Positions 1,104 to 25,655 of a stretch of 64,000 bases of DNA are shown here, piece after piece (positions within the stretch are counted from its first letter, which is position 1; each line of letters begins with the position of its first letter). The stretch comes from a virus. The position numbers and the translations under genes were made by a program. The notes beneath the pieces were generated by a model. It saw only the letters and a program-made list of their open reading frames with translations. It had not been told where the DNA came from and did no database searches. Location of the stretch: the UHGV virus genome UHGV-0018639. One strand, 5' to 3'.

Positions 1104-2564
1104 ATGTATATACATACATCTAACTTAGACGCTCAACCGCGTCGAAAATCAACATTATCGCTCGACTGGACGCTTGAAACAGCAGTCGAGCGCACAGATT
1201 TTTTGGAAACCTATTTGGCCAATCGAACCGTCCCTCTCTCCGAGTCTGACCTCGAAATGTGTGGAAACTATCTACTTTGGGGACGTGGCTCAAACGGCCT
1301 AAATGCTGAACAAGAAGGTTACGTCCAATTAGAGCGCCGCAACTCTACATGGGCCTCTAGCGCAAATACCCGCCAAGTGTCCTCAATTGAAGAACTAACA
1401 GAAAACCCAACTTTTGATGAGGCGCAATTTCACTCACTGGCCGACACAACTTATAAAACACCCAAACCAAACTTTTCACGTGAAGAATGCCTACGCAAAG
1501 CCCCGCCTGAATTCATTCCAATGCTACGGGATTTGTTTGGGCGCATTGACCGTGTTGAACTATCAATTGGGTTTTATGATAGGGCGCACGGCAAACGCAA
1601 GACAGACTTGCCTGAGCGCCTAACACGCAAGTTTTCACCCGAAGAGCTGTTTGATTTAGAAGAACGCGCGCTTAGCTGGACAAATGGTCAGTATCTCAAG
1701 AAGAAGCATCTTTTAGTGGAGCTGAGACGCGAACAATATACCATAAAGGACAGTTTTTCTAATAGTCTAATGGCACGACCCACAAATAAGTTTGTGGAGG
1801 AGGTTTCACCGACATTTTGCGGGCCAGAATCAGCGGAGGATGGATTTTTGGTTCTCCCTATTGGCTTGTCTGACTCTGCAAGACAAACGCAAGGCAAAAA
1901 CAAGTCGGTCAACTGGTTTTTAGAATTTGAGGAACTTGCCGTGAAAAAAGATGATCCGGCCTATCAAACGCAAGCCCGCAAGTTGGAGAGCCGACTAATC
2001 GAGCGAGGAATTTGTCAGCCACATAAGACAACTAAAAAAACGCAAGAACCCCAAGGAAACGCGTCTCAAAAATCGGCCATGCCATTCGGCTTTCTTACAA
2101 TTGACTTCCGCAATCCGGCCCACATTTGTAGATTGTTGGATAGCCAAAAGCTACTAATAACTGACCCCTCTCTCTCACGAGTGCGCGATACCCTTGATTT
2201 TTATATGCGGCAGGCCAATTTGACCCCCATTCAACAAAAAGTGCTTGAACTCAAACTAGCCGGTAAGCAAAATATGGATATCAAGGAAATTGTCAATAAA
2301 GAATTTGACCGCTCTTATCAGGCAAATTACATTTCCACCATTTATCGACAATACGTAGCCCCCGCAATTGCGGATGCTGCAACTCGTCATTTGGAAATTG
2401 TGCGCGCTATCGCTGAGGGGCCAGAACGTTTCAAATACTGCTCGGTCTGCGGCCGCCTGTTAGTAGAGAGCGAAACCTATTTCATACACAAGAGCCGCGC
2501 AAAATCAGGTTTTTCAGCTCGCTGTAAACAGTGTGATCATGACTATCGGCAAAGGAGAAAGTAA
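1104..2564 (+). CDS. putative transcription regulator: sigma-70 region-4-like HTH (LTPIQQKVLELKLAGKQNMDIKEI) plus C-terminal C4 zinc ribbon
   Basis: ORF track 486 aa with a strong RBS. There is a region-4-like HTH motif and a C-terminal CxxC...CxxC. The function is inferred from motifs only. Confidence 0.5.
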   Translation: MYIHTSNLDAQPRRKSTLSLDWTLETAVERTDFLETYLANRTVPLSESDLEMCGNYLLWGRGSNGLNAEQEGYVQLERRNSTWASSANTRQVSSIEELTENPTFDEAQFHSLADTTYKTPKPNFSREECLRKAPPEFIPMLRDLFGRIDRVELSIGFYDRAHGKRKTDLPERLTRKFSPEELFDLEERALSWTNGQYLKKKHLLVELRREQYTIKDSFSNSLMARPTNKFVEEVSPTFCGPESAEDGFLVLPIGLSDSARQTQGKNKSVNWFLEFEELAVKKDDPAYQTQARKLESRLIERGICQPHKTTKKTQEPQGNASQKSAMPFGFLTIDFRNPAHICRLLDSQKLLITDPSLSRVRDTLDFYMRQANLTPIQQKVLELKLAGKQNMDIKEIVNKEFDRSYQANYISTIYRQYVAPAIADAATRHLEIVRAIAEGPERFKYCSVCGRLLVESETYFIHKSRAKSGFSARCKQCDHDYRQRRK

Positions 2565-2993
2565 ATGAAAGAAAAAGAAAATAAAGTTTCTGTGAAACAG
2601 TTCCAAGAATTCTTGGACTTGTTCTCACAACTTCAAATTTATGACCTAATCGCGCTATGCCAGATTATGAGCACTCCGATGGGTTATGAAAAACAAGAAG
2701 GGGAGGAACGCGCACGCCCGCGTGAGTTAGCTGACATTTTGGAGGAAGTGATGGATAAGTTTCTAGCGCTTCCGAGGGCAAGCCGCAAAGATCTGTTGAA
2801 GGTAATGCGCGTTGCTGTTAAAAATCCATCGCCTGAACCCAAAGAATTCACAAAAATGGCAGCCGCGAAATCAGGCAGGTTAGCTACTCCATCGAACGAT
2901 TCGATTGAATGTGTTGATGGTAAATCTGCTCTACAGACTTGTCCTACTCACACGTGCAGCGTTGCCTCAAAAACAAGTGAAGGTGATACCTAA
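2565..2993 (+). CDS. hypothetical protein
   Basis: ORF track 142 aa, translationally coupled to its neighbours (ATG overlaps the previous stop). Confidence 0.55.
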   Translation: MKEKENKVSVKQFQEFLDLFSQLQIYDLIALCQIMSTPMGYEKQEGEERARPRELADILEEVMDKFLALPRASRKDLLKVMRVAVKNPSPEPKEFTKMAAAKSGRLATPSNDSIECVDGKSALQTCPTHTCSVASKTSEGDT

Positions 2994-4021
2994 TGCCCGG
3001 ACTCGGACCCCAGATGATTCGCCCACGAATTGAGACACAAACTTGTTCATGGTGCGAGTCGCTTTTGGGAAGCGATGAATTTGCTTATACAAATTCTCCT
3101 TTCTATCCTAAAAAGCGCCTTCCGATGTGTAATTCGTGCATCAAACAGTATTTGGTTGAAAAAGATTTTCAATGGGATGCTATTGATCGCATTTGCCAGT
3201 GCGCCGACGTTCCGTTCGTCCCACGAGAATTTGAGCGAGTTCACAACGAGAAAGGTGATGATTGTTTTCCCATCTACGCGGCACTTTTTGCGACCTCTGA
3301 ATATGAGGGGCTTGGATGGGACAATTATTACAAGGCTTATAAACAATTGCGCGATAACGGCCAGTTGATTGATGAGCTTCCATTGCTAGCAGAAGACAAG
3401 CGCGCAAAATTGATCGACCGATGGGGCGCCAATTATGATGATGAGGCTTTGACATACCTTGAACAACTTTATCAAGGCTTACAGGCCACACAGAATATTG
3501 CAGGTGCTCTCCAAAGCGACCAAGCCTATAAAATTTGTAAGATTTCCTATGAGATTGACTGCCGCATTAGAGAAGGCGTTGATTTTGATAAGCTGTTAGG
3601 CTCTTATGATAAGCTTGTCAAGACAGCCGAATTTACACCGAAAAATGCGAAAAATGCAGCTGACTTTGATACCACAGGGGAATTGATTAAATTCTTAGAG
3701 AAAAAAGGCTGGCGTTGTAAATATTATGATGGCGTTACAAGAGATATTGTTGATGAAACAATCAAAAACATTCAAGCCTACAACCAGCGTCTTTATACAA
3801 ATGAAAGCGGCCTTGGTGAGGAAATAACTCGTCGCATTGAAGCCCTTGAACGTGCGAAAAAACTTGAGGGCGCGGAGCAGTCTTTCGAAGAGCGTTATTA
3901 TGGTGAAAGCACGGATGTTAGCGATAATGAAGCTGACCTCTATGAAACCGAAGGCTATAAGGAGCTTCTTTCAATGGACGGCGACGATTTTGAAGCAGAG
4001 GTTGAAGGTTATGACTCCTAA
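2993..4021 (+). CDS. hypothetical zinc-finger protein; by position a possible small terminase subunit
   Basis: ORF track 342 aa with CxxC...CxxC near the N-terminus. It lies immediately upstream of, and overlaps, terL exon 1. No sequence-level evidence for TerS. Confidence 0.5.
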   Translation: MPGLGPQMIRPRIETQTCSWCESLLGSDEFAYTNSPFYPKKRLPMCNSCIKQYLVEKDFQWDAIDRICQCADVPFVPREFERVHNEKGDDCFPIYAALFATSEYEGLGWDNYYKAYKQLRDNGQLIDELPLLAEDKRAKLIDRWGANYDDEALTYLEQLYQGLQATQNIAGALQSDQAYKICKISYEIDCRIREGVDFDKLLGSYDKLVKTAEFTPKNAKNAADFDTTGELIKFLEKKGWRCKYYDGVTRDIVDETIKNIQAYNQRLYTNESGLGEEITRRIEALERAKKLEGAEQSFEERYYGESTDVSDNEADLYETEGYKELLSMDGDDFEAEVEGYDS

Positions 4022-4364
4022 GAAAATTCCCCTTTTGTTAGAGAAAAAAGAAAATATGTTCCAAGCGCCCGATCGACCCGTGCGTGATGGCATTGAGCTT
4101 GAGAAGGGAGTCGCCCTTTCAGAGCAATATTTAGAAGAACATTTAGAGGATATTGAAAATGTAATGGGTACGTTTATTGCGTATCCTGACATTTATCTTG
4201 ATACGATAGCGACAGAGAACTCACCTTCTTTGTTTTTCTATCAGCGCATTACCTTGCGTGCCATTATGAGATTTAAGGAGATATATATCTGTGCCTGCCG
4301 CGCATACTCGAAGAGCTTTATCTCAATTTTGGCAATGATATTGGAATGTATTTTTATTCCGGGT
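4011..4364 (+). CDS. terL: terminase large subunit, exon 1 (118 codons, Walker-A-like CRAYSKS region)
   Basis: The ATG at 4011 overlaps the upstream stop, with a gaagg RBS. The exon ends at U4364 (..CCG GGU), predicted from P1/P10 pairing and from alignment of IFIPG|TRRFICAPNKK with the post-Walker-A region of T4 gp17. ORF track 3837..4400 reads on into the intron. Confidence 0.7.
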
Positions 4365-5584
4365 AAAATGTGTGCCCCCTTACTTCGTGAGGAGTATTGA
4401 ATAAGTTATCTTAAAGCTGGAAAACCGTAAAGTCTCTTATACCTTCAGGGTGCTTCTCTCAAAAAGGTTGCGAAAGTAGAAACAAATAAGAGAATGGCAT
4501 AAGGTGCAAACCTAAGTGCTGCTAATTGGCAATCAGCGACTAAAATAGAAAAAGGAGTATTTATAATGAGTGCAAAGAAAAAGACACATGAACAGTTTGT
4601 AAAGGATATTATAAATAAATATAATATACAAAAAGAGGATTTTACCTTTTTATCAGAATATCAAGGTTATGATAAGCCTATTATTTTTCAATGCAACAAA
4701 TGTGGAAAAATAAAGACTATTGTGGCTGGAGCTTTGCTAAGGACTTCGTCTCATAAAAAACACATATGTCCATGCTACGGTTACGCTCAAGAATGGCACG
4801 AAGAAAATCAATTTTTGCGAATTTGGATAAAAAAGCAATCTAAATATGATATAATAAAATATACTCCGGGGCTTTTAGAAATTCAACTAAAATGCAAAAA
4901 ATGTGGGACTTTTCAAAAACGCTCGGCTAAAAGTTTAGAGAAAAATGATGAGTGTTTGGGCTGTGAGAACAAATGTAATATTAAGAAACCGCAGCAAGTA
5001 TTTGAGCAAGAATTGAAAAATTTCTGTGGAGAAGAATATCAATTAGTTGGAGATTATAATGGATCTGATAACTATTGTCTATTGAGGCATACTCTTTGTG
5101 GGAAAATTTATCGAGCTAAGCCTCATTATCTTCTAACAGGAAAAGGCGGAACTTGTCCTATTTGCCAAATAAAATCAAAAGGAGAAAAAGTAATTGCTGC
5201 TTTTCTTGATAAAAAAAATATTGTTTACTATACACAATATAGATTAGATGAATTTCGGCGTGCACCATATGATTTCTTTTTACCAGACCATAATTTATTA
5301 ATTGAATTCCAAGGCACTCAGCATTTTCAGCCAGTTCCGCGTTTTGGAGGAGAATTGACTTATCAACGACAAAAAGAAGTTGATGAAAAAAAAGTAGAAA
5401 TAGCTAAAAAAGAAAATAAGCAACTACTCATTATAAATTACAATCAAATCGATGAAATAGAAACTATTTTAGCTCAACGACTATCCCTTTATGGGAGTAG
5501 CAATGATATTATTGCGAAACGATAACTATCTCTTAGGAGATAAAGATATAGTCTAATCTTATATGAAAATATAAGTCTTTTTTG
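4365..5584 (+). mobile_element. group I intron (1220 nt) interrupting terL, carrying a homing endonuclease ORF in the P8 region
   Basis: P-like ggttgcgaaag (4466-4476), Q-like ggtgcaaacc, R element tcagcgactaaaa (4534-4546), S element aagatatagtct (5540-5551), a P9 hairpin with GAAA loop, and terminal G5584. P1 is gggU(4361-4364):Gccc(4374-4377). P10 is acacg(5585-5589):ugugu(4369-4373). Splicing gives an in-frame 602-aa TerL. Confidence 0.7.
4566..5525 (+). CDS. intron-encoded homing endonuclease candidate: zinc-finger repeats plus C-terminal Vsr/DUF559-like PD-(D/E)xK motif (PYDFFLPDHNLLIEFQGTQH)
   Basis: ORF track 319 aa with its own RBS (aaaggag). It sits between the intron R and S elements. 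There are multiple CxxC pairs and a C-terminal motif resembling Vsr-like endonucleases. Confidence 0.65.
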   Translation: MSAKKKTHEQFVKDIINKYNIQKEDFTFLSEYQGYDKPIIFQCNKCGKIKTIVAGALLRTSSHKKHICPCYGYAQEWHEENQFLRIWIKKQSKYDIIKYTPGLLEIQLKCKKCGTFQKRSAKSLEKNDECLGCENKCNIKKPQQVFEQELKNFCGEEYQLVGDYNGSDNYCLLRHTLCGKIYRAKPHYLLTGKGGTCPICQIKSKGEKVIAAFLDKKNIVYYTQYRLDEFRRAPYDFFLPDHNLLIEFQGTQHFQPVPRFGGELTYQRQKEVDEKKVEIAKKENKQLLIINYNQIDEIETILAQRLSLYGSSNDIIAKR

Positions 5585-7039
5585 ACACGAAGATTTATTT
5601 GTGCCCCCAACAAAAAACAAGGCGCACAAATAGCTAAAGAAAAGATAAATGAAATTTATGACAAGTGGCCTCTTATAAGGCGAGAAGTGGTAAGAGGCGA
5701 TATTGACCCAATGCCGGGAAATTTTGGTTCAGATTATGTCAGCTTGACATTTCGTAACGGCTCTACATTTGAAGTTTGTGGTGCGTTGGAAAGCACCCGT
5801 GGATTGCGTAAATATGGTGGTTTGATAGATGAGATTCGTGACCATGAGGAACAGCCGATAAGTGAAATTGTCCTTCCTCTTCTCAATGTTTCACGCCGTC
5901 TTCCTGATAACACTGTAAATCCACGTGAACCGAACCAACAAACAATTTTTGCTACAAGTGCGGGCACTAAGATGTCATTTGCATATGACAAACTCATCTC
6001 GGTTTTTGAAAACTCAATAATTCTACCGAATCAATCATTTACATTCGGCTGTGACTATAGAGTCCCAATGATGCACGGACTTGTAGACCGTAAATACATC
6101 AACAATTTAAAAATGGACCCCTCTTTCAACGAAGAAAGCTTCGCTCGTGAATATATGTCCTTGTGGAGCGGGGCTTCTGACGAAAGTTGGTTTAATTTTA
6201 GCAAAATGGAAAAACATCGTAAAATAAAAAACCCAGAATTTCATGCGAATTTTAGAGCTGGAGTCAATCAATTCTACTTTATTTCGGTAGACGTAGCAAG
6301 ACTGGCCGGCTGTCAAACTGTTGCGTGTGTTTTTCGTGTAAATATTAGAAATGATAGATATTATGCAACGCTTGTAAATGTTATTGTACTTGGTAAGCAA
6401 ATGGAACTAAAAACATTTACTCAACAAGCAATTGATCTCAAAAAACTTATTAGGGACTATAAACCAAAAGAGTGTCTTATAGATACAAATGGTTTAGGTG
6501 TTGGCCTTGCCGATGAAATGATAAAAGTCCATTATGATGAACACGGTGAAATGCTTCCAGCATATGGTTTCTTCAATGATGACTCTTATAAAAAAGTACA
6601 GCCAAAAGACGCTATTTGTATCTTATATTCAATGAAAGCCAACGGCCCATTGAATAGTGAAATACATGGGACAACATATGCCCGCATAAATGGCGGTATG
6701 ATTCAGTTTCTAATAAAAGAGCAGGATGCGAAAATTGCTTTGCTCGCTACAAAGGTAGGACAGAAGATGAGTATTGAACAGCGCGTCAAGCGACTTATGC
6801 CGCATGAAATGACATCGAGCCTTTTTGAAGAAATGGCAAATCTTCGTTTGAAAAGAACAGGCTCTGGCACTGATATAGTGCTCGAACAAATCAATACTCG
6901 ATTCCCTAAAGATAAATATTCTGCTTTTTCCTATGGTGTTTGGCGTATCAAACAATTAGAGGATGAAGCAACTAAAAAGCGTCGGCGCCGCACACCCGGT
7001 GTAAAGCGCCAACTAACCTTTTTTTCAGGAGGTCGCTAA
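5585..7039 (+). CDS. terL: terminase large subunit, exon 2 (ATPase Walker B LIDEIRDHEE, motif III TSAGT, nuclease domain)
   Basis: ORF track 5582..7039. Walker B and the coupling motif are visible. Exon 2 starts at A5585 after terminal G5584. Confidence 0.85.
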   Translation, partial: TRRFICAPNKKQGAQIAKEKINEIYDKWPLIRREVVRGDIDPMPGNFGSDYVSLTFRNGSTFEVCGALESTRGLRKYGGLIDEIRDHEEQPISEIVLPLLNVSRRLPDNTVNPREPNQQTIFATSAGTKMSFAYDKLISVFENSIILPNQSFTFGCDYRVPMMHGLVDRKYINNLKMDPSFNEESFAREYMSLWSGASDESWFNFSKMEKHRKIKNPEFHANFRAGVNQFYFISVDVARLAGCQTVACVFRVNIRNDRYYATLVNVIVLGKQMELKTFTQQAIDLKKLIRDYKPKECLIDTNGLGVGLADEMIKVHYDEHGEMLPAYGFFNDDSYKKVQPKDAICILYSMKANGPLNSEIHGTTYARINGGMIQFLIKEQDAKIALLATKVGQKMSIEQRVKRLMPHEMTSSLFEEMANLRLKRTGSGTDIVLEQINTRFPKDKYSAFSYGVWRIKQLEDEATKKRRRRTPGVKRQLTFFSGGR

Positions 7040-16453: not shown

Positions 16454-18370
16454 ATGCCTACAAATAGGACAGTGTCTGGGACAATCAACCTAAAGGCGCT
16501 TTTGGATGTTAGTCAGATTAGGAAAGCGGCTAGTGATATTGAAAATGCGTTGAGTGGAGTTTCGCTTCCGAAGAATATTAGTTCTGATTTGACGAAGAAG
16601 TTAAATCAGATGAAGGGAGAAATGACTCGTCTTGATCAGATTCTTGCAGGCGATATTACGGCTGATAGCTCTAAAGAAGCATTGAATTCAGCTCAAAGGA
16701 TTCTCAAAGCTTATAGCGATATAAAAGTTGCAGTTGCACAAGCCGCCAATTTGTCAAATGCGCAACTTAAGAAACTTTTTCCTGAATCAGTAGCTGAAAA
16801 CATTGAGAAAGCAAATAGGGCGCTTGAGAAGTATAATTCTAATTTAGAGAAATATAATAGAGGCATTACTAGTAGAAAAGGCAATATAACAAAACAACAG
16901 AACCGTGAAGCTGAACTTCAACGAAAACTCGCGGCTGAACAAGCTAAACCAACAAATGCTACCGTCAATGGGCAAGTTTATAATGCAAAAGATTTGCGAG
17001 ATCAAGCAAGCGCAGCTCAGAAAGAGATAGATAATGCTCAAAAGAAAATGCAGCAGTGGTATAATGCCAAAGCTGGACGAGAGAATCTTTCCGAAGGGCA
17101 AAAACGTAAATCTAGCACTTATCGACAGATTGCTGATGAGTTAGAAGCAGCAAAGAAAAAACTGAAAGAATTTACAGATGCACAAGCTACTGTTCAAGAC
17201 TCGTCTGCAATAAGCAGCCTTATTAGTCAAATAACTACTGTGCAAGGGAAGATTAAAGATGCTCAAAAAGCATTACAAGATTTCCAAGCGAACAATAGTG
17301 GAACGGCTGACTTTTCAACATTGCGCGCTGAACTTGAAAAACTTGGCATTGATATGTCAAATTTGCCTCAAGATGTCGATGGTGCGAGACAGGCGATCGC
17401 TAAACTGACAAATGATGAACTATCCAAAATTCAGTCGCAAATCAGCGGCGTGGTTTCAGCCACTGATAAAGGCTCTGGTGCTTTTGATAATTATGCTAGC
17501 GGTGCAAATCGTGCGCGAGATGCTGTCCGTCAGCTAACAAATCAAGAGCGCGAACTTCAGCAGTTCCAGTCTCGTGTTGAATACTTCTTTGGTTTCAACA
17601 ATAGCGTTCAGCTTTTGAAAAATGCTGTGCGCGATGCTATTGACACAGTAAAAGACCTTGACGAGGCAATGACTGAGACTGCTGTTGTCACTGACTTTAG
17701 CGTTGGTGATATGTGGAAACAGTTGCCGAAATATACCGATGAAGCTAACAAGCTTGGCGCGACAGTAAAAGGCGCATATGAAACATTGACATTGTTCTAC
17801 CAACAGGGTTTGAATCAGAATCAGGCTTGGGATTTGGGTATTGAGACAATGAAGATGGCCCGTATTGCGGGATTGGACTATGCTAATGCCACTGATCTTA
17901 TGACTAGTGCCTTGCGCGGCTTCAATATGGAGCTAAATCAAGTTTCTTCTCAACGTGTCAATGACGTCTATTCTGAATTAGCTGCTATAACCGCTTCAGA
18001 CGTTGAAGAACTCGGTATTGCAATGAGCAAGACAGCGTCTTTGGCTCATTCTGCTAATATGGAATTTGAGACGACCGCGGCTCTGTTAACACAAGGCGTC
18101 GAAGCGACTCGCGAGAGTCCTGAAACTATTGGTACTAGCTTGAAAACTGTAATAGCTCGTTTTACAGAAGTAAAAGAGCTATTCACAAAAGATCAATTGA
18201 TGGGCACCGACAGTGAAGGCCAAGTTATCAATATAAATAAAATTGATACTGCCCTTCAGACGGTCGGTATTGATTTGAAAAAATTCTTACTCGGCGAGGA
18301 AGGTTTGGATGATGTTTTGCTCCAACTTTCCTCTCGTTGGAATACATTAGACTTAGCAACGCAGAGATAT
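16454..18370 (+). CDS. tail tape measure protein, exon 1 (639 codons, TP901-family core: ...ALQTVGIDLK...SRWNTLDLATQRY)
   Basis: ORF track 16454..18388. The exon ends at U18370. P1 is agauaU(18365-70):Guaucu(18379-84). The last 6 codons of the ORF track are intron-encoded. Confidence 0.75.
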
Positions 18371-19532
18371 TTGCAAAAGTATCTATAACCTATTGAATTG
18401 CGGGAAATTCCTTAGAGCTTTAGCAACCAAGTATAGGTGGTAACACACTATATGGCGAGGGTAATGACTAAGGTACGGTAAAATCGCTAAAGATTGGAAA
18501 ATCCGCAGCCAAGACACATAATCTTGACTTCTTTCTATTTTTATGATATAATAAAAATAGAGGTGAAGAAAATGAAACAAATTTGTTTAGATAATGAACC
18601 AACTCCTTTTTATATCACAGAAAGTGGGGCTTTATGGAGAGAAGATACTAACCACTGGTATAGACCCTTTGAAAATGGTGGTTATCTTAGCTATCACTTA
18701 AAATGGAAAAATAAAACATATCCAAAACGAGTTCATCGGCTTGTGGCAGAGGCTTTTATTCCTAACCCAGACAATTTACCTTTTGTCCATCATAAAGACC
18801 ATAATAGGCTTAATAATTGTGTTAATAATTTAGCTTGGGCTTCTATCAAAGAAAACAATCAAGATAAATTGGAAAAAATGAAACAAGAAAGATATATAAA
18901 TGAGAAAATAGACTTTGAAAAAGAAGAGTGGAAGCAATATATGGAAACTGATTTTTGGGTTAGTAATATGGGGCGAGTCAGAAACCAACGGACAAAAAAT
19001 ATTCTAAAAGGGAATATCCGAGATAATGGTTATATTCGCTATGGGCTAAGATATGATGGAAAGATTCATTCTTTCAATGGGCACAACCTCGTTTGGTTAG
19101 TATGGAATGGCCCACAAAAAGGAGTTATAAACCATATAAATGGAGATAAATTAGATAATAGATTATCAAATCTTGAAGATGTTTCTCAATCAGAGAATCT
19201 GATAAAAGCAAATATTCCCAATCGTACCCCCGTCTGTAATAGTTTAGAGCCAGATGGAGAAATTATAAAAGTTTTTCCGTCTCAAGGACAAGCAGCCAAA
19301 TATTATAATATAAGCTCAGGGACTTTGAATAGAGCGCTTTATAATAAAGGTTGGCGAGCGGGTGGCTTTTATTGGAGAAAATTAGAAGAATCAGATTATG
19401 TGTAAGGTTCAACGACTACTCTATATCGGATAACGATGGAGGTAGAGACATTGCGTCTCGAAGTGGTAGGATGGATTTGAAAAAGAATCCAGTGATATAG
19501 TCTATTCCTTTGCGAAAGTAAAGGTAGTAAAG
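18371..19532 (+). mobile_element. group I intron (1162 nt) in the tape measure gene with an HNH homing endonuclease ORF in the P6 region
   Basis: P element aattgcgggaaa (18396-18407). Q element aatccgcagc (18509-18518). R element gttcaacgactac (19407-19419). S element gatatagtct (19494-19503). P9 hairpin with GAAA loop and terminal G19532. The spliced product reads ..LATQRY|IATQAAGSRQQSRFLAMISNY.., matching the conserved TP901 tape measure core. Confidence 0.8.
18572..19405 (+). CDS. HNH homing endonuclease (two HNH-like motifs: VHHKDHNRLNN...SIKEN and INHINGDKLDNRLSNLEDVSQSEN)
   Basis: ATG 18572 after RBS agaggtgaag. ORF track start 18494 includes the intron Q element. 277 aa. Confidence 0.8.
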   Translation: MKQICLDNEPTPFYITESGALWREDTNHWYRPFENGGYLSYHLKWKNKTYPKRVHRLVAEAFIPNPDNLPFVHHKDHNRLNNCVNNLAWASIKENNQDKLEKMKQERYINEKIDFEKEEWKQYMETDFWVSNMGRVRNQRTKNILKGNIRDNGYIRYGLRYDGKIHSFNGHNLVWLVWNGPQKGVINHINGDKLDNRLSNLEDVSQSENLIKANIPNRTPVCNSLEPDGEIIKVFPSQGQAAKYYNISSGTLNRALYNKGWRAGGFYWRKLEESDYV

Positions 19533-22500
19533 ATTGCAACTCAGGCAGCAGGTAGTAGACAGCAGTCTCGTTTCCTTGCAATGATCTCAAACTACTCCCG
19601 CACACAAGAACTCGTTGAAGCCGCCTACAACAGCACAGGTGCATCTCAAAAGCAATTTGAGAAAACTCTCGACAGCCTTGAAGCAAAACTCAATAAGCTG
19701 ACAAATGCATGGGATACGTTCACAATGGGCTTAGCAAACAACGCCATTATTAAGGCAGTTGTTGATGCGCTCACTACAATTCTTACAGTAATAAATAAAA
19801 TAACAGGCGCATTCGGTGATGGAACTGGCGCAGTTCTGAAATTTATGACTGCAATGTCCCTCATAAAGGCTGGTGGCGTGGCTTTCGGTAGTGGTATGTC
19901 GTGGATTACACAGGCCAAAGGCGCGATTGATAAAGGGCAAAAGATTCCGAAATTTGGTGCAGTGGCTAAGGCTTATGCTAAAACTCAATATGGTACTAGT
20001 TTTGGCGGTGCGTTAGGTAATGCTTTTGTTGGGCCTTGGACGGGTTTGATAAATATTCCAAAGACGATAAAGGAAAATCGTCTTGAAGCCAATGCAGCAA
20101 GACTGAAACGATATAACAAAATAGAAGCCAAATTTGCAAATTCTTCAAGGCAACAAGAGCATCTTTCTCGCTTTGCTCGTGCTGCAAATAGTAATACTTT
20201 ACTTGGTCGTTTCGGTACTTGGGTAGCTAACAAAGGCTGGGGCCAAAAGAGAATTGGTGGCAGTCATGCGACTAAAATTCAAGAATATCTTGGCTTAGTC
20301 GGGCAGGAGGGAGCTGCGGCCGCGGGCGCTTTAGCTCAAGTAGCTTCTGTTCTCGCTAAACTTGGCGTTTTTGCAGGAATAGCTGTTGCCGCGGTAAAAA
20401 TCGCGGACCTCAATCTAATCAATGCCAAAGAGGCCCAAGCCGCGGCTGAAGCCCAAAAATCCGCGCAGTCTCAAGCTCGTCAAAATCAAAGCTCTTTCAA
20501 AGAACAAATTTCAACCTATCGTCAACTTCAAACTACGCTCAAAGAAACTACAAAAGGGACTGATGCGTGGAACGAAGCCCTTGTTGCTGCGAACGAAAAC
20601 GTTCTCGAAATGGCAAAGAATTGGGGCGATTTAGGACTCACCTATTCAGTTGATAACGAGACTGGTGCACTTCAACTTGATAAAACTTCACAAAAGAAAG
20701 TTGAGGATAAGTTAGCGTCCGCGACAAACGAATCAGCTTTCAAAACTGCGTTCACACAAGCATATGCTAACGCAGTTCAAGGACGCGATTATAAGCGCTC
20801 TAGAGTTACTCAATCTCTAAGTGGAGCGGATGACCTTGAAGCCCAAAATAAGGCAAAAGCTTCTCTCAATACAGCAAATAGCCTGCTTGATAGTGGACTG
20901 TCTAGTATCGTTGATAGTTTTGACGGTTTCGGTTCAGCAATCAGTAATGATTTGCTTGATGAGAAATACTTAAAGGGGGCCGGAAAAGAGGCCGCTAAAT
21001 ATTTCTGGCATACTACCGGAGATATGACTGAAGATCTTATGTCTCGCTTTGGCCTTACCCGTGAGCAAGTTCTTTCAACATATGGTAATGGTGAAAAGCT
21101 CGATGCTGAACTTGCGCACAATGCGTTAGGTTTGGACGATGTGGCTAATAAATTGGCTACTGAAGTTGGGGGTATGATCGAAGCCTTCTCTGGAGCTTTT
21201 GAGAATTCCAAATCGGCTCAAGCCTTCCTTGATGTTCTCAACGGCGTTGAAGACGTTGATACATCCAAACTTAAAGACGTCGGTTTAAAGTTACCCGCAA
21301 TTTTTGAAAGCTTAGGCTATGAACAAGGAACTGAAGCATACTCTAATGCTTACCTTCAGTTTATGACCAATTACACCGATGCGATAAAAACAGCGGCAGA
21401 AAATGAAGCCATCGCGCGCTCGGTTGTTGGAGATACTAAATTCAATCAGTTGTCAGACCAAACTCAGAAAGATCTGAGTTCAATGCTGGCAAACTCTTCC
21501 AAATATTTTGGATACGATGGACAGCGAGAATTACAAGATCAACTTAGGACGCTTTCTAAACAAGGTGAACTTGATGCTGATCGTCTAACTCAGGCTTATA
21601 GCTCAATCGACTTCTCTAGTCCAATTCGTGCAATGTCTCAGTTGCGCAAGATGGCGCAGAGCACTGATGCAGAAATCAAAGCTCTTGGTGAACAAGGACT
21701 TAAGTCCCTGTCTGACAATACTAGTGCGTTAAGTTTGTCGAACCAGTTTGAGTATCTTTACGAAAATATTCTTTCATCTGATGAAAATCTGGAAGACCTG
21801 ATCGATGAATTTGGCAAACTTGATGCTGATGATATCTATGATTTAGCTGATAGTTTTTCTGACCTTAAGACCTTCCTGAAAGAAAGTGGAGTCAGCGCCG
21901 CGGCTCTTGCAACTACGCTCAACCGTATCAATAAGAATGGCCTCAATCCTAATCTTATAAGTGGCGAGTTTTTAACTGCAATGTCTAAACTCAATTCTTT
22001 CACAAATGGAATTGAAGGCACTATAAGAGAACTTGATGACATTGACCTCGGCACAGATTATGGCCAGATGACTGACTTCGTGGCCGATCTGCTTGACCCG
22101 TGGAAAGAAATGATGAATAATGGTGAGTTTGGCAATGCTCAGGCTTCCGGTATTTATGATTTGTTCTTTGGTGCAGGCTCTTGGCGTAAAATCACTCAGC
22201 AGGGCGAAGCAATGGTCAAGCAAGAAGGCCAGCGCTTGTTCGACTTGCTCAACAACATTGTCAATACAGGTGATTTATCTCCTATTTGGGAGGCTGTCCT
22301 TGGTACTGATGTTCTTTCTGGCAAGGGCTTCAATGCTAAATGGAATGATGAGTTAGGTCGCATTGACTGGGAAATTACTGATGCAACTTACCAAGATATT
22401 TATGACTCTCTTGCCGGAAAAGGTTTATCTGATACACTTATCAAGCTTCTGATTGGCGATGCTGCGAACTTCTCGATTGACTTGGCTCAAATTGTTGATG

Positions 22501-25500
22501 CCAATGGTGTTGAGGAAGCAATCAAGTATTTGATTAAGAATACAAAAGGCATAATTGATCAATCTCTTATTGATACAATTATTGCCCAAGCCGCAGATCC
22601 AGAAGAAGCGAAAAAAATTGTCGATAAAGCGCTCAAGGCGAATGGCAAGACGGCTGATGAGTGGAAGGCTGATACTCTTACTACTGGTATAAATGCTGGA
22701 TTCTCTGGAGAGCAAGAAAGTTTGGATGAAGGTACTTACGCTAGAGCTATTGCTGATAATATAGATGTTGGTACAGCAACACTTAAAAAACGAATAGAAA
22801 ATAAAACAGCTCTTACAGAAAATCTGCTGAATTCCCTTTCAAAACAAGAGCAGGAATTTAGAGATAGAAATAATTTATCTTCTTTGGCAAGTTCTTGGCT
22901 TGATATTTCTGATGGCGATTTTGAAAGAGCTTTTCAAGGTTTTATTCAGGATTTAGGTATAACTAATGAGGCAGTAGATAGCGCCGCAAGAGAAACTGCA
23001 AGAGAATATTTAGAAGCTTTTGCAAAGAATTTCAATACTCAAACTGCGGAAATCGACCTTGATGCAATGGTCAAAGAAACAGGTCAAGACTATGAACAAT
23101 TCATTGGCCCTGTGGCCCAAAAGATTCGAGATGAGATAGATGGCGCTGTCGAGGTTATATACCAAGGCCATAAGATAGAGGTTGAACCTGAAGTCATTAC
23201 GGACGATATGTCGGATGATGAAATTCAGGCTTGGCTTGACAAACAAGTAAAAGAACAAGACATTCAAGTTTGGAAAGATAATATTGCTGAAGCTGTCACA
23301 CAAGGCGTCGCTGAACTGGGTGAACTTGACATTGGTATTGATAGTGATGCCTTGACTTCTGCTATTGAAGGAGCAATTTCAGCCGCGACGGGCAAGACTT
23401 ATCATGTCAATATTGTAGGCGATGTTGCTCTTGACGGTAGTTCGAACTCTGGCTCTAATACTAAAACGACAACAGTTACTAAAGGCAAATTTAGTAAACC
23501 CAAGAAAGATTCAAGCTCTGCCGCGGGTGGCTATGTTCCTTCTCATGCTGGTGGCACTCGTCGTGCAAAAGCCGGCCCTGCGCTTACTGGTGAAGAAGGC
23601 CCCGAAATCGTCTGGAACAAAGAAAAAGGTTATGCTTACATTGTCGGTGCAAAAGGCCCTCAGTATGCCGATCTTCAGCCGGGAGATAGAGTTTTCACAG
23701 CGCCACAAACCCGCAAAATTTTGAGTAATTCTGACCGTGGAGCGACTCCGGCATTTAGCGGTGGCGGTAGTATTCCTAACCCATATGATCACTCTGGCTC
23801 TTACAATAGGAAAGACAATAAGGGTTGGTTGAACGATGGCTCCAGCTCAGGTTCCAGCTCCAAATCTGATGATGGCGACAAATGGCGCAACGAATTTGAC
23901 TGGCTCTACAATCTGATGGAAGACCTCATCGAACTTGGCCGCGACCAAGAGAAGCTCGACGAGAAATATGAAGATTATCTTGCGGATATTTCCAAAACCG
24001 CGGGTGATCTCGTTCGTGTAACAGCGGAGCAATATCGCAATCTTTACGCGCAACAAGTTCGTCAAGAGCTTGCCTATGAGAAACGTCTCCAAGAGATGCG
24101 CGAATATCTCGCAGTAAATGCGCAGTATGCCGAGTATGGGACTTACAATTTTGAAGATCAGACGATTGAAATTGACTGGGACAAGATTGAAGCTATTCTT
24201 GATGAAGATCTGTATAACAACGTCAAAGATTATGTCGATGGCTTGGAGGAAGTTCAAGACCGCATTGACAAAGCCGATGATGCTCTTCAAGATATTGAGA
24301 ATGATATCCAAGATTTGCGCGAACGCTTTATCGAAGAATATACCAGTTTTGAAAAGCGCATTTTAGACGCCTTGGTCGATGAGCGTCAAAAGCAAATTGA
24401 TGAACTTAGTGATATCAACGATAGCATCAAAGATACTAATTCCAATTTGTTTGATGCAATTCAGAAGTCAATTGATAAACAACGGCAAGACCGTGATAAT
24501 CAAAAGACTGAAGATGAAATTGCCAAAAAAGAGCGTCGCTTGGCTTTCTTGAGACAAGACACTTCAACTGATAATACTGTTGCTATCAAAGAGCTTGAAA
24601 AAGAGCTTAGTGAAATGAAGCAGGATTATACAGATGAACTGCTTGATCAAAAACTGAGTCTTCTCCAAGATCAAGCTGATTTTGCCGCTGAGCAACGTGA
24701 ACGCCAAATCAAGTTAATGGAAAGTAATCTTGAATTTGACCAAGAGACTGGTCAACTCTGGGAGCAGATTCACGATTTGTTGAATAACTCTGTGGGCGAG
24801 GATGGCAAGCTTTTAAATGATAGCGCGCTCGTTGCTTTGCTTCAGAAGAGCGAAAGTTGGGAGAGCTTGAGCGAAGTCCAGAAAAAGATGTGGCAAGATG
24901 ACCTTATTAAGGACTTCAATGTTGCGTATGCGTATGTATTGTCGCAAAATATTGATGAGACAAAAATTAAGCAAGATAAGACTAACAAGCTACTTGAGGA
25001 ACTTGTCAATCACTTAGTGCCGAGCCATTCGCAAGCCGCCGATAAGAATTCGAGTGGTTCAAGTGGCGGTGGCGGAGGCTCTGGCGGAACTGGTGGAAAA
25101 ACAAATCTAAATGAGAATCAGACTAAAGAGACTTGGATCGCTTATTATGGTAAGGTTCCTCTTAGCGGAACTTATTCATCTCAAGGCGAGGCTCTCGCGG
25201 CTGCGAGAAAGTATCAAGAGAAGCTAATTGCTAGTTACTCTTCCCAAGTGCAAAAGGAAATGAACTCTGATAGAAAAAAGCAACTTCAGGCGGCTTTAGA
25301 TAGAGCAAAATATACAGCTATTTCTTCTAAAAAACTTTCAGCCTACAAAACCGGTGGCCTCGCAACTCAAACCGGCCTTGCTTGGCTCGATGGCACCAAG
25401 TCTCGTCCTGAGCTTGTCCTCAATGCGCGCGATACTGAAAACTTTATTCAACTCAAAGACATATTGTCCGACCTGTTGCGTGGTGGCTCCACAACAAGCA

Positions 25501-25655
25501 ACATAACCACATCCGGTGATAACTATTTCAGCATCACGGTTCAAGCAGAAATCGCAAATGACTACGATGTTGAGCGTCTTACTAAAAAAATCAAAGACGA
25601 AATTTACAAAGATGGCTCTTACCGTGGTGTGAATGTAATTAGAAAAATCAGATAA
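19533..25655 (+). CDS. tail tape measure protein, exon 2 (2040 aa; combined protein ~2679 aa)
   Basis: ORF track 19581..25655. The upstream in-frame sequence from 19533 continues the tape measure core (IATQAAGSRQQSRFLAM). It is long, coiled-coil and Gly/Ser-rich. Confidence 0.8.
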   Translation: MATQAAGSRQQSRFLAMISNYSRTQELVEAAYNSTGASQKQFEKTLDSLEAKLNKLTNAWDTFTMGLANNAIIKAVVDALTTILTVINKITGAFGDGTGAVLKFMTAMSLIKAGGVAFGSGMSWITQAKGAIDKGQKIPKFGAVAKAYAKTQYGTSFGGALGNAFVGPWTGLINIPKTIKENRLEANAARLKRYNKIEAKFANSSRQQEHLSRFARAANSNTLLGRFGTWVANKGWGQKRIGGSHATKIQEYLGLVGQEGAAAAGALAQVASVLAKLGVFAGIAVAAVKIADLNLINAKEAQAAAEAQKSAQSQARQNQSSFKEQISTYRQLQTTLKETTKGTDAWNEALVAANENVLEMAKNWGDLGLTYSVDNETGALQLDKTSQKKVEDKLASATNESAFKTAFTQAYANAVQGRDYKRSRVTQSLSGADDLEAQNKAKASLNTANSLLDSGLSSIVDSFDGFGSAISNDLLDEKYLKGAGKEAAKYFWHTTGDMTEDLMSRFGLTREQVLSTYGNGEKLDAELAHNALGLDDVANKLATEVGGMIEAFSGAFENSKSAQAFLDVLNGVEDVDTSKLKDVGLKLPAIFESLGYEQGTEAYSNAYLQFMTNYTDAIKTAAENEAIARSVVGDTKFNQLSDQTQKDLSSMLANSSKYFGYDGQRELQDQLRTLSKQGELDADRLTQAYSSIDFSSPIRAMSQLRKMAQSTDAEIKALGEQGLKSLSDNTSALSLSNQFEYLYENILSSDENLEDLIDEFGKLDADDIYDLADSFSDLKTFLKESGVSAAALATTLNRINKNGLNPNLISGEFLTAMSKLNSFTNGIEGTIRELDDIDLGTDYGQMTDFVADLLDPWKEMMNNGEFGNAQASGIYDLFFGAGSWRKITQQGEAMVKQEGQRLFDLLNNIVNTGDLSPIWEAVLGTDVLSGKGFNAKWNDELGRIDWEITDATYQDIYDSLAGKGLSDTLIKLLIGDAANFSIDLAQIVDANGVEEAIKYLIKNTKGIIDQSLIDTIIAQAADPEEAKKIVDKALKANGKTADEWKADTLTTGINAGFSGEQESLDEGTYARAIADNIDVGTATLKKRIENKTALTENLLNSLSKQEQEFRDRNNLSSLASSWLDISDGDFERAFQGFIQDLGITNEAVDSAARETAREYLEAFAKNFNTQTAEIDLDAMVKETGQDYEQFIGPVAQKIRDEIDGAVEVIYQGHKIEVEPEVITDDMSDDEIQAWLDKQVKEQDIQVWKDNIAEAVTQGVAELGELDIGIDSDALTSAIEGAISAATGKTYHVNIVGDVALDGSSNSGSNTKTTTVTKGKFSKPKKDSSSAAGGYVPSHAGGTRRAKAGPALTGEEGPEIVWNKEKGYAYIVGAKGPQYADLQPGDRVFTAPQTRKILSNSDRGATPAFSGGGSIPNPYDHSGSYNRKDNKGWLNDGSSSGSSSKSDDGDKWRNEFDWLYNLMEDLIELGRDQEKLDEKYEDYLADISKTAGDLVRVTAEQYRNLYAQQVRQELAYEKRLQEMREYLAVNAQYAEYGTYNFEDQTIEIDWDKIEAILDEDLYNNVKDYVDGLEEVQDRIDKADDALQDIENDIQDLRERFIEEYTSFEKRILDALVDERQKQIDELSDINDSIKDTNSNLFDAIQKSIDKQRQDRDNQKTEDEIAKKERRLAFLRQDTSTDNTVAIKELEKELSEMKQDYTDELLDQKLSLLQDQADFAAEQRERQIKLMESNLEFDQETGQLWEQIHDLLNNSVGEDGKLLNDSALVALLQKSESWESLSEVQKKMWQDDLIKDFNVAYAYVLSQNIDETKIKQDKTNKLLEELVNHLVPSHSQAADKNSSGSSGGGGGSGGTGGKTNLNENQTKETWIAYYGKVPLSGTYSSQGEALAAARKYQEKLIASYSSQVQKEMNSDRKKQLQAALDRAKYTAISSKKLSAYKTGGLATQTGLAWLDGTKSRPELVLNARDTENFIQLKDILSDLLRGGSTTSNITTSGDNYFSITVQAEIANDYDVERLTKKIKDEIYKDGSYRGVNVIRKIR

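Follow-up and report, generated by a model that had tools for sequence, protein, structure and literature searches.

The TMP locus and its insert

The 64,000-nt stretch of UHGV virus genome UHGV-0018639 analyzed here (the window) carries a tape measure protein (TMP) gene that is broken at positions 18371-19532 by an insert with an endonuclease open reading frame (ORF). We are highly confident that the insert is a mobile, self-splicing group I intron of subgroup IA in a 2679-codon TMP gene of an SPbeta-like metagenomic phage. A first-pass annotation, made from the sequence alone, had already proposed a group I intron with an HNH endonuclease at this position, and an intron-less allele, the RNA fold, covariation and Pfam matches bear it out.

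Exons and splice boundaries

The interrupted gene has three parts:

16454..18370, + strand: TMP exon 1, exactly 639 codons, ending ...LATQRY, with U18370 at the 5' splice site (from the ORF list)
18371..19532, + strand: group I intron of subgroup IA, 1162 nt, lacking P2 and ending in omega-G19532 (absent from the intron-less allele; RF00028 half-matches, fold, covariation)
19533..25655, + strand: TMP exon 2, 2040 codons plus stop, starting IATQAAGSRQQSRF (from in-frame translation)

Translation joins the two exons in frame to a 2679-aa protein, ..LATQRY|IATQAAGSRQQSRFLAM.., with the junction-spanning peptide ...LATQRYIATQAAGSR and the spliced-junction nucleotide sequence CGCAGAGATAT|ATTGCAACTCAGG (also CGCAGAGATATATTGCAACTCAGG). 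Exon 1 alone matches Pfam PF10145 over positions 2-190/201, and the joined protein completes the family to 2-201/201. TIGR01760 matches exon 1 alone over 6-201/349 (66.3 bits) and the joined protein in one contiguous match over 6-347/349 (97.6 bits; cut-off 28.8), in keeping with the proposal that joining reconstitutes a TP901-family core. Exon 2 matches the phrog_4211 TMP.

The junction proposed at 18370|19533 is exact to the base. An intron-less allele (locus L001, ~90% nucleotide identity) aligns gap-free to the exons joined at these positions, and exactly 1162 nt are absent from it; it reads ...GCAACGCAAAGGTATATTGCGACTCAAGC... where the joined window reads ...GCAACGCAGAGATATATTGCAACTCAGGC..., and the intron-less site of its type is CAAAGGTATATTGCGACTCAAGC. 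L001 was found via P0124, an uninterrupted 2719-aa TMP in the same 90% cluster as exon 1. The gene is likewise unbroken in L004, L006 and L007 and in the majority of the 80 IMG/VR loci; across the junction, uninterrupted homologues read TQRYIATxAAGSRQQSRFIAM.

That the insert lies in the most conserved block of the TMP, as first suggested, is supported in two ways. The best-conserved 15-residue windows of the TMP domain are those spanning the junction, a ranking that is partly circular in that the sequences were picked with a pattern for the same block. The junction motif is also present in 74 of 74 uninterrupted homologues, a count that is independent of the pattern-picked sample.

Ribozyme structure and covariation

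The following elements make up the ribozyme:

18365..18384, + strand: P1, exon AGAUAU (18365-18370) paired with internal guide GUAUCU (18379-18384), with a U18370-G18379 wobble
18371..18376, + strand: P10 5' strand UUGCAA, pairing with exon 2 UUGCAA (19534-19539)
18389..18526, + strand: 5' ribozyme half, with the P3 5' strand (18389-95), P4 (18398-404/18502-08), P5 (18408-11/18496-99), P5a (18418-24/18486-92), P5b (18431-39/18444-53) and P6 (18510-14/18522-26)
18396-18407, + strand: P element, aattgcgggaaa
18500-18509, + strand: Q element, aatccgcagc
19407..19532, + strand: 3' ribozyme half, with R and the P7 5' strand (19414-18), P7.1 (19419-28/19434-41), P7.2 (19445-49/19455-59), P3' (19464-70), P8 (19472-78/19485-91), P7' (19498-502) and P9 (19503-13/19518-29)
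19407-19419, + strand: R element, gttcaacgactac
19494-19503, + strand: S element, gatatagtct

The P, Q, R and S elements and the 6-bp P1 with its wobble at U18370 all lie where the first-pass annotation had placed them, and a 6-bp P10 that it had missed can be added. The P10 pairing survives sequence changes in relatives (L016 UUGUAA/UUGCAA, L022 UUGGAA/UUUCAA). The presence of two extra helices, P7.1 and P7.2, between the 5' strand of P7 and P3' leads us to assign the intron to subgroup IA, an assignment to the level of IA rather than of IA1 or IA2. A pattern scan of viral contigs for the P...Q motif returned at least 120 stretches, giant-virus contigs included; this motif is generic to the intron class.

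For folding, intron positions 157-1033 were deleted; the 285 nt that remain, extended by 10 exon bases, were folded unconstrained. The minimum free energy fold contains P1, the long-range P3, P4, P5, P5a/b, P6, P7.1, P7.2, P8 and P9. The ORF-deleted RNA has a folding energy of -76.4 kcal/mol (z = -3.48), and none of 200 shuffled sequences folds as well.

RNAalifold, applied to four introns that occupy the window's insertion site (site a; window, L016, L018 and L083), recovered 82 pairs, 19 of them with compensatory changes; P1 is predicted both here and in the minimum free energy fold. For the pair counts, the P7 pseudoknot (GACUA 19414-18/UAGUC 19498-502) and P6 were added by hand and two spurious hairpins were removed. 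In this amended structure 99.1% of cells are paired across the four introns (100% in P7), and 20 pairs change on both sides, compared with 7.8 ± 1.9 in shuffled alignments (0 of 500 reach 20) and 0-4 in slid controls. The compensatory changes are located in P3, P5, P5a, P5b, P6, P7.1 (one pair), P8 and P9; changes in P7 are one-sided. Aligning 12 ORF-deleted introns of sites a, b and c (the latter two described below) with MAFFT put the 3' half out of register, owing to differences in the P7.1/P7.2/P9 architectures, and this alignment was left out of the pair counts.

Two side observations concern the exon sequences that enter these helices. L001 differs synonymously from the window inside the P1 and P10 exon sequences (AGGTAT vs AGATAT and TTGCGA vs TTGCAA; L001 4905-4925, window 18362-18370 plus 19533-19545), which could reflect co-conversion or endonuclease escape. 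In L002, which has an intron at site b, site a is empty and identical in sequence to the spliced junction of the window.

The endonuclease module

The intron also contains a compact expression module:

18524..18552, + strand: promoter-like site, TTGACT, 17 nt, TATAAT, with an extended -10 TG (11/12 consensus matches, the best in the region)
18560..18565, + strand: Shine-Dalgarno sequence GAGGTG, 6 nt before the start codon (ATG) of the endonuclease
18572..19405, + strand: HNH homing endonuclease ORF, 277 aa, made of two NUMOD4+HNH modules and, at the C-terminus, a DNA-binding-like tail

Comparison with ORF-less relatives at the same site places the module, 877 nt in all, between the P6 hairpin and GUUCAACGA; the endonuclease stop codon (19403-19405) ends one base from R. 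The protein matches Pfam HNH_3 (PF13392; 8.6e-17, two stretches, 61 bits vs a cut-off of 24.8), NUMOD4 (30.8 vs a cut-off of 23.4) and phrog_59 (2e-61), and its 90% cluster has 155 members, one of which is named ‘homing endonuclease’. Residues 119-210 align to residues 2-97 of I-HmuI (PDB 1U3E; E 1.9e-7), that is, to its N-terminal beta module and HNH motif. Within the protein, the N-terminal 110 residues (aa 11-95) align to aa 126-209 (24% identity, E 1e-5), and the endonuclease is therefore a tandem of two beta-module-plus-HNH units with a C-terminal tail. By eye, both HNH motifs look intact. I-HmuI nicks one strand; as a matter of speculation, two HNH modules might allow both strands to be cut.

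Promoter and Shine-Dalgarno elements equivalent to those of the window lie upstream of the endonuclease gene in L005, L014, L016, L018 and L024, and are missing in ORF-less copies. The endonuclease is thus predicted to be transcribed independently of the late TMP mRNA.

Occupancy of the insertion site and probable mobility

The intron of the window is ~83% identical to those of L016, L018 and L024, with the ribozyme halves at 91-94%. The TMP DNA on either side of the intron reaches only 46-73% identity in these comparisons, even when just the 30-300 nt nearest the junction are considered. The same intron sits at the same site in divergent TMPs. The better conservation of the intron than of its flanks points to horizontal spread.

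Among ~125 related TMP protein clusters, 74 are uninterrupted, ~23 stop at the window's site, ~27 stop 28 nt downstream and 2 stop 18 nt downstream; ~40% end at an intron site in the same block. More truncation points were seen in the TMP domain, after IATMA, after QQS, after TREAPE and at query positions ~29/30 and 38-47 (P0088, P0095, P0122 and P0148), together with upstream breaks in L069, L073, L079 and L083. These suggest further insertion sites besides a, b and c.

We propose the following sequence of events. Once the late TMP mRNA is made, P1, with its U18370-G18379 wobble, would form between the guide GUAUCU and the end of the exon, AGAUAU, and an exogenous guanosine bound in P7 would attack after U18370. 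The first six bases of the intron, UUGCAA, would then pair with the start of exon 2 (P10), omega-G19532 would take the G-site, and exon ligation would restore QRY|IATQAAGSRQQSRF. The region between P6 and P7 would serve as a self-contained module, in which the gene for the 277-aa tandem-HNH relative of I-HmuI has its own Shine-Dalgarno sequence and a promoter of the sigma-A type. In co-infecting relatives whose TMP allele lacks the intron, this endonuclease would nick or cut near the insertion site, and repair from the intron-bearing copy would install the intron (homing). Attack on intron-less alleles in mixed infections is predicted by analogy with I-HmuI and I-TevI.

Alternative explanations

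Several points weigh against the intron reading. Splicing and cleavage, like promoter use and homing, are predicted here from sequence and structure. The covariation set is small, with four introns of which three are closely related; the pairs of P1, P4 and P7.2 are invariant in these introns and hence outside the reach of covariation. The endonuclease module lies directly 3' of the P6 hairpin and not in an obvious terminal loop. Finally, the Rfam scan that the first-pass annotation had named as a check stays below threshold on the window itself. In gathering mode (50 bits) RF00028 has no match on the window. In E-value mode it gives two half-matches that flank the ORF, at 18399-18564 (P3-P6, 18.4 bits) and 19316-19524 (P7-P9, 21.5 bits), both sub-threshold. 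Only ORF-less orthologues at the same site exceed the gathering score of 50 (L022, 65.8 bits; L083, 59.6 bits). We attribute the low score of the window copy to the 877-nt endonuclease insert, which splits the model, since orthologues lacking the insert pass.

One alternative is that nothing is spliced: a free-standing HNH gene would lie between two TMP halves and the TMP would be made as two polypeptides. In public gene calls the two exons do appear as distinct proteins, one of 644 aa that ends in LQKYL* (exon 1) and one that starts from M at 19581 (exon 2), and free-standing HNH genes are common in phages, according to the portion of the literature drawn on here. This arrangement is nevertheless very improbable. 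The insert holds a complete group I core with covariation, and copies at the same site that lack any endonuclease pass RF00028. The two exons meet in frame, with base precision, inside an almost invariant motif, and the sequence before the first in-frame ATG of exon 2 (19581) contains no Shine-Dalgarno ribosome-binding site.

We give just as little credence to a decayed, splicing-dead intron in a defective phage or prophage remnant, with the TMP a pseudogene. The sub-threshold Rfam score fits such decay, as does the fact that splicing is predicted here from sequence and structure. Against it, both exons and the endonuclease ORF are intact, and 99.1% of helix positions are paired and kept so by compensatory changes. 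An identical exon 1 protein occurs on three contigs of up to 132.6 kb, the intron is present in several near-complete phage contigs (59-117 kb), and the low score is accounted for by the 877-nt insertion that the passing orthologues lack.

Another kind of element or an assembly chimera is more improbable still, and all that speaks for it is that an insertion is there and holds an endonuclease ORF: the TMP frame stops five codons into the insert (LQKYL*, stop 18386-18388), which rejects an intein; no group II family is found at E ≤ 10 and the ORF encodes an HNH endonuclease with no reverse transcriptase, which rejects a group II intron; and the same arrangement recurs in independent ENA, Logan, NCBI and IMG/VR assemblies, which speaks against a chimera.

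A self-splicing group I intron is thus the reading we retain, and it has consequences for annotation. The TMP of the window and many of its relatives in metagenome catalogues are miscalled: they appear as a pair of unrelated proteins and a gene labeled ‘hypothetical’ or ‘homing endonuclease’, where the correct product for the window is a single 2679-aa tape measure. Intron-plus, intron-minus and ORF-less alleles at one site are also materials for homing studies.

Neighboring sites and twin introns in relatives

In relatives, the block QRY|IATQAA|GSRQ|QSRF contains three insertion sites within 10 codons, at 0 (a), +18 (c) and +28 nt (b). L022 (4272-4931) and L024 (4272-5791) are occupied at a as well as at b, with a 28-nt micro-exon between the two introns, and L083 (5736-6293) is occupied at a and c, with an 18-nt micro-exon between them. 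The endonucleases of sites a and b are 40% identical and share the same 277-aa architecture.

Site-b introns are found in L002, L005, L014, L022, L024, L072, L073 and L082. A U-G wobble at the 5' splice site is near-universal among group I introns. In 12 of 12 site-b introns with resolved splice sites the last exon base is C, not U, because only that junction restores both AAGSRQQSRF and a terminal intron G. In the site-b P1, this C(-1) is paired with G or, in the abundant LNVNRLLLAA type (the commonest), stands opposite A. The remaining P1 pairs covary with the exon (GGUAGUAGGC/GCCCACUGCU, GGAAGCAGGC/GCCUGCUUCU, ...AGAC/GUCC... and GGAAGUCGGC/ACCGACUUCU).

In L083 (IMGVR_UViG_3300045988_167376), RF00028 reaches or exceeds its gathering score seven times over 3.8 kb (2517-6290), a count for the TMP region and not per interruption of the TMP reading frame. 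L079 and L072 have extra upstream introns as well. The TMP exons of L079 (6132 onward) and L083 (6294 onward) contain in-frame stop codons of the TAG type only; L079 has five TAG in 576 codons, and the first of them takes the place of the invariant Q in GSRQQSRF. Reassignment of TAG in the late genes of such a phage is suggested. The TMP of the window phage shows no TAG recoding.

Tentatively, and at slightly less than even odds, we view the window intron as one player in a contest of three related intron lineages for a single 10-codon TMP block, in which an intron already in place may disrupt the sequence that a neighbor's endonuclease recognizes. Double occupancy, if functional, demands correct splicing of 18-nt and 28-nt micro-exons. 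If these arrangements are functional, few bacterial or phage genes known to us would be as dense in introns as this TMP gene, which would offer a natural test bed for splice-site rules and intron competition.

Phage context and a second intron

Genes neighboring the TMP belong to the Pfam families YomW, YomV, YomU_Tube and YonB. The nearest cultured TMPs by tblastn are ≤35% identical (Perkons, ~138-kb Enterococcus phages, SPbeta yomI), and tblastn of the junction region, in which all matches were ≤35% identical, found no TMP split at the window's site among cultured phages. Megablast of 17800-20100 against 50,697 phage records gave no match; the phage has no close cultured relative. It is SPbeta-like and known only from metagenomes, and its tail is presumably long and non-contractile, by analogy with SPbeta. 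The locus adds a large uncultivated SPbeta-like clade to the hosts whose mobile group I introns target an essential structural gene in its best-conserved block.

A second group I intron, at approximately 4365-5601 of the window, splits the terminase large subunit gene. Its exons are the ORFs at 3837-4400 (exon 1) and 5582-7039 (exon 2); phrog_15503 spans both, and phrog_2 TerL matches exon 2. RF00028 matches at 5460-5575 (30.6 bits, E 6e-4), and an R element (gctcaacgactat), an S element (agatatagtct) and a P9 hairpin are present. The intron ORF (4566-5525) encodes a 319-aa endonuclease-like protein that matches phrog_559 and phrog_9084 and has no Pfam match. The sequence ‘tgtgccccc’ occurs at both ends of this intron (4371-79 and 5600-08), and the splice sites there are approximate.

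Comparison with known systems

The group I (IA2) intron of the T4 td gene carries the I-TevI ORF in its P6 region, under promoters of its own and not as part of the host mRNA. The window intron resembles it in having an endonuclease ORF in the P6 region and a predicted promoter of its own. It differs in the enzyme, as I-TevI belongs to the GIY-YIG class, and in its setting, as the td intron lies in the thymidylate synthase gene of a myovirus with a Gram-negative host. The endonuclease itself is related to I-HmuI, from the DNA polymerase intron of phage SPO1. Each enzyme has its gene in a group I intron of a phage; the module that I-HmuI has once occurs twice, in tandem, in the enzyme of the window.

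The closest cultured nucleotide relatives of the 5' ribozyme half are found by BLAST in unannotated gaps of Staphylococcus Twortvirinae and SPO1-like Bacillus phages (69-75% identity over ~120-155 nt), including a match of 73.4% identity in PALS_1 that lies between two pieces of a lysin coding sequence. The endolysin intron of Twortvirinae (phage K type) and the SPO1-like introns share with the window intron the phage IA type and HNH-type endonucleases. They differ in their host genes (lysin, DNA polymerase and others) and in the endonucleases themselves, and the BLAST alignment extends over the P3-P6 half only.

The nearest parallels in host gene are the introns of Bacillus cereus-group prophages (Tourasse and Kolsto 2008, PMC2504315). 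That paper describes group I introns of types IA1 and IA2 at three TMP sites (TMP-IVS1, IVS2, IVS3a and IVS3b), of which TMP-IVS3b, like a tail-tube intron, lacks a complete homing endonuclease gene. Related introns re-target neighboring sites via P1, different introns share one site, and a terminase intron occurs in the same prophage. With three TMP sites on record there, and ~40% of our ~125 related clusters interrupted, the first-pass view of tape measure genes as uncommon intron hosts was overstated.

The window intron and its relatives are like the B. cereus-group introns in the class of host gene (TMP), in intron class, in having several insertion sites, in the re-targeting of neighboring sites by P1 change (here sites a, b and c) and in the company of a terminase intron. 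Unlike TMP-IVS3b, the window intron carries an intact tandem-HNH gene, and the phage lineage is different, a ~130-kb SPbeta-like metagenomic phage with a TMP ≤35% identical to cultured ones. All qualitative features of the window intron have precedent in PMC2504315, and the novelty is the phage lineage. The window intron itself breaks no new ground; its interest to specialists lies in the competition of neighboring sites, the twin introns and the non-U 5' splice site in relatives.

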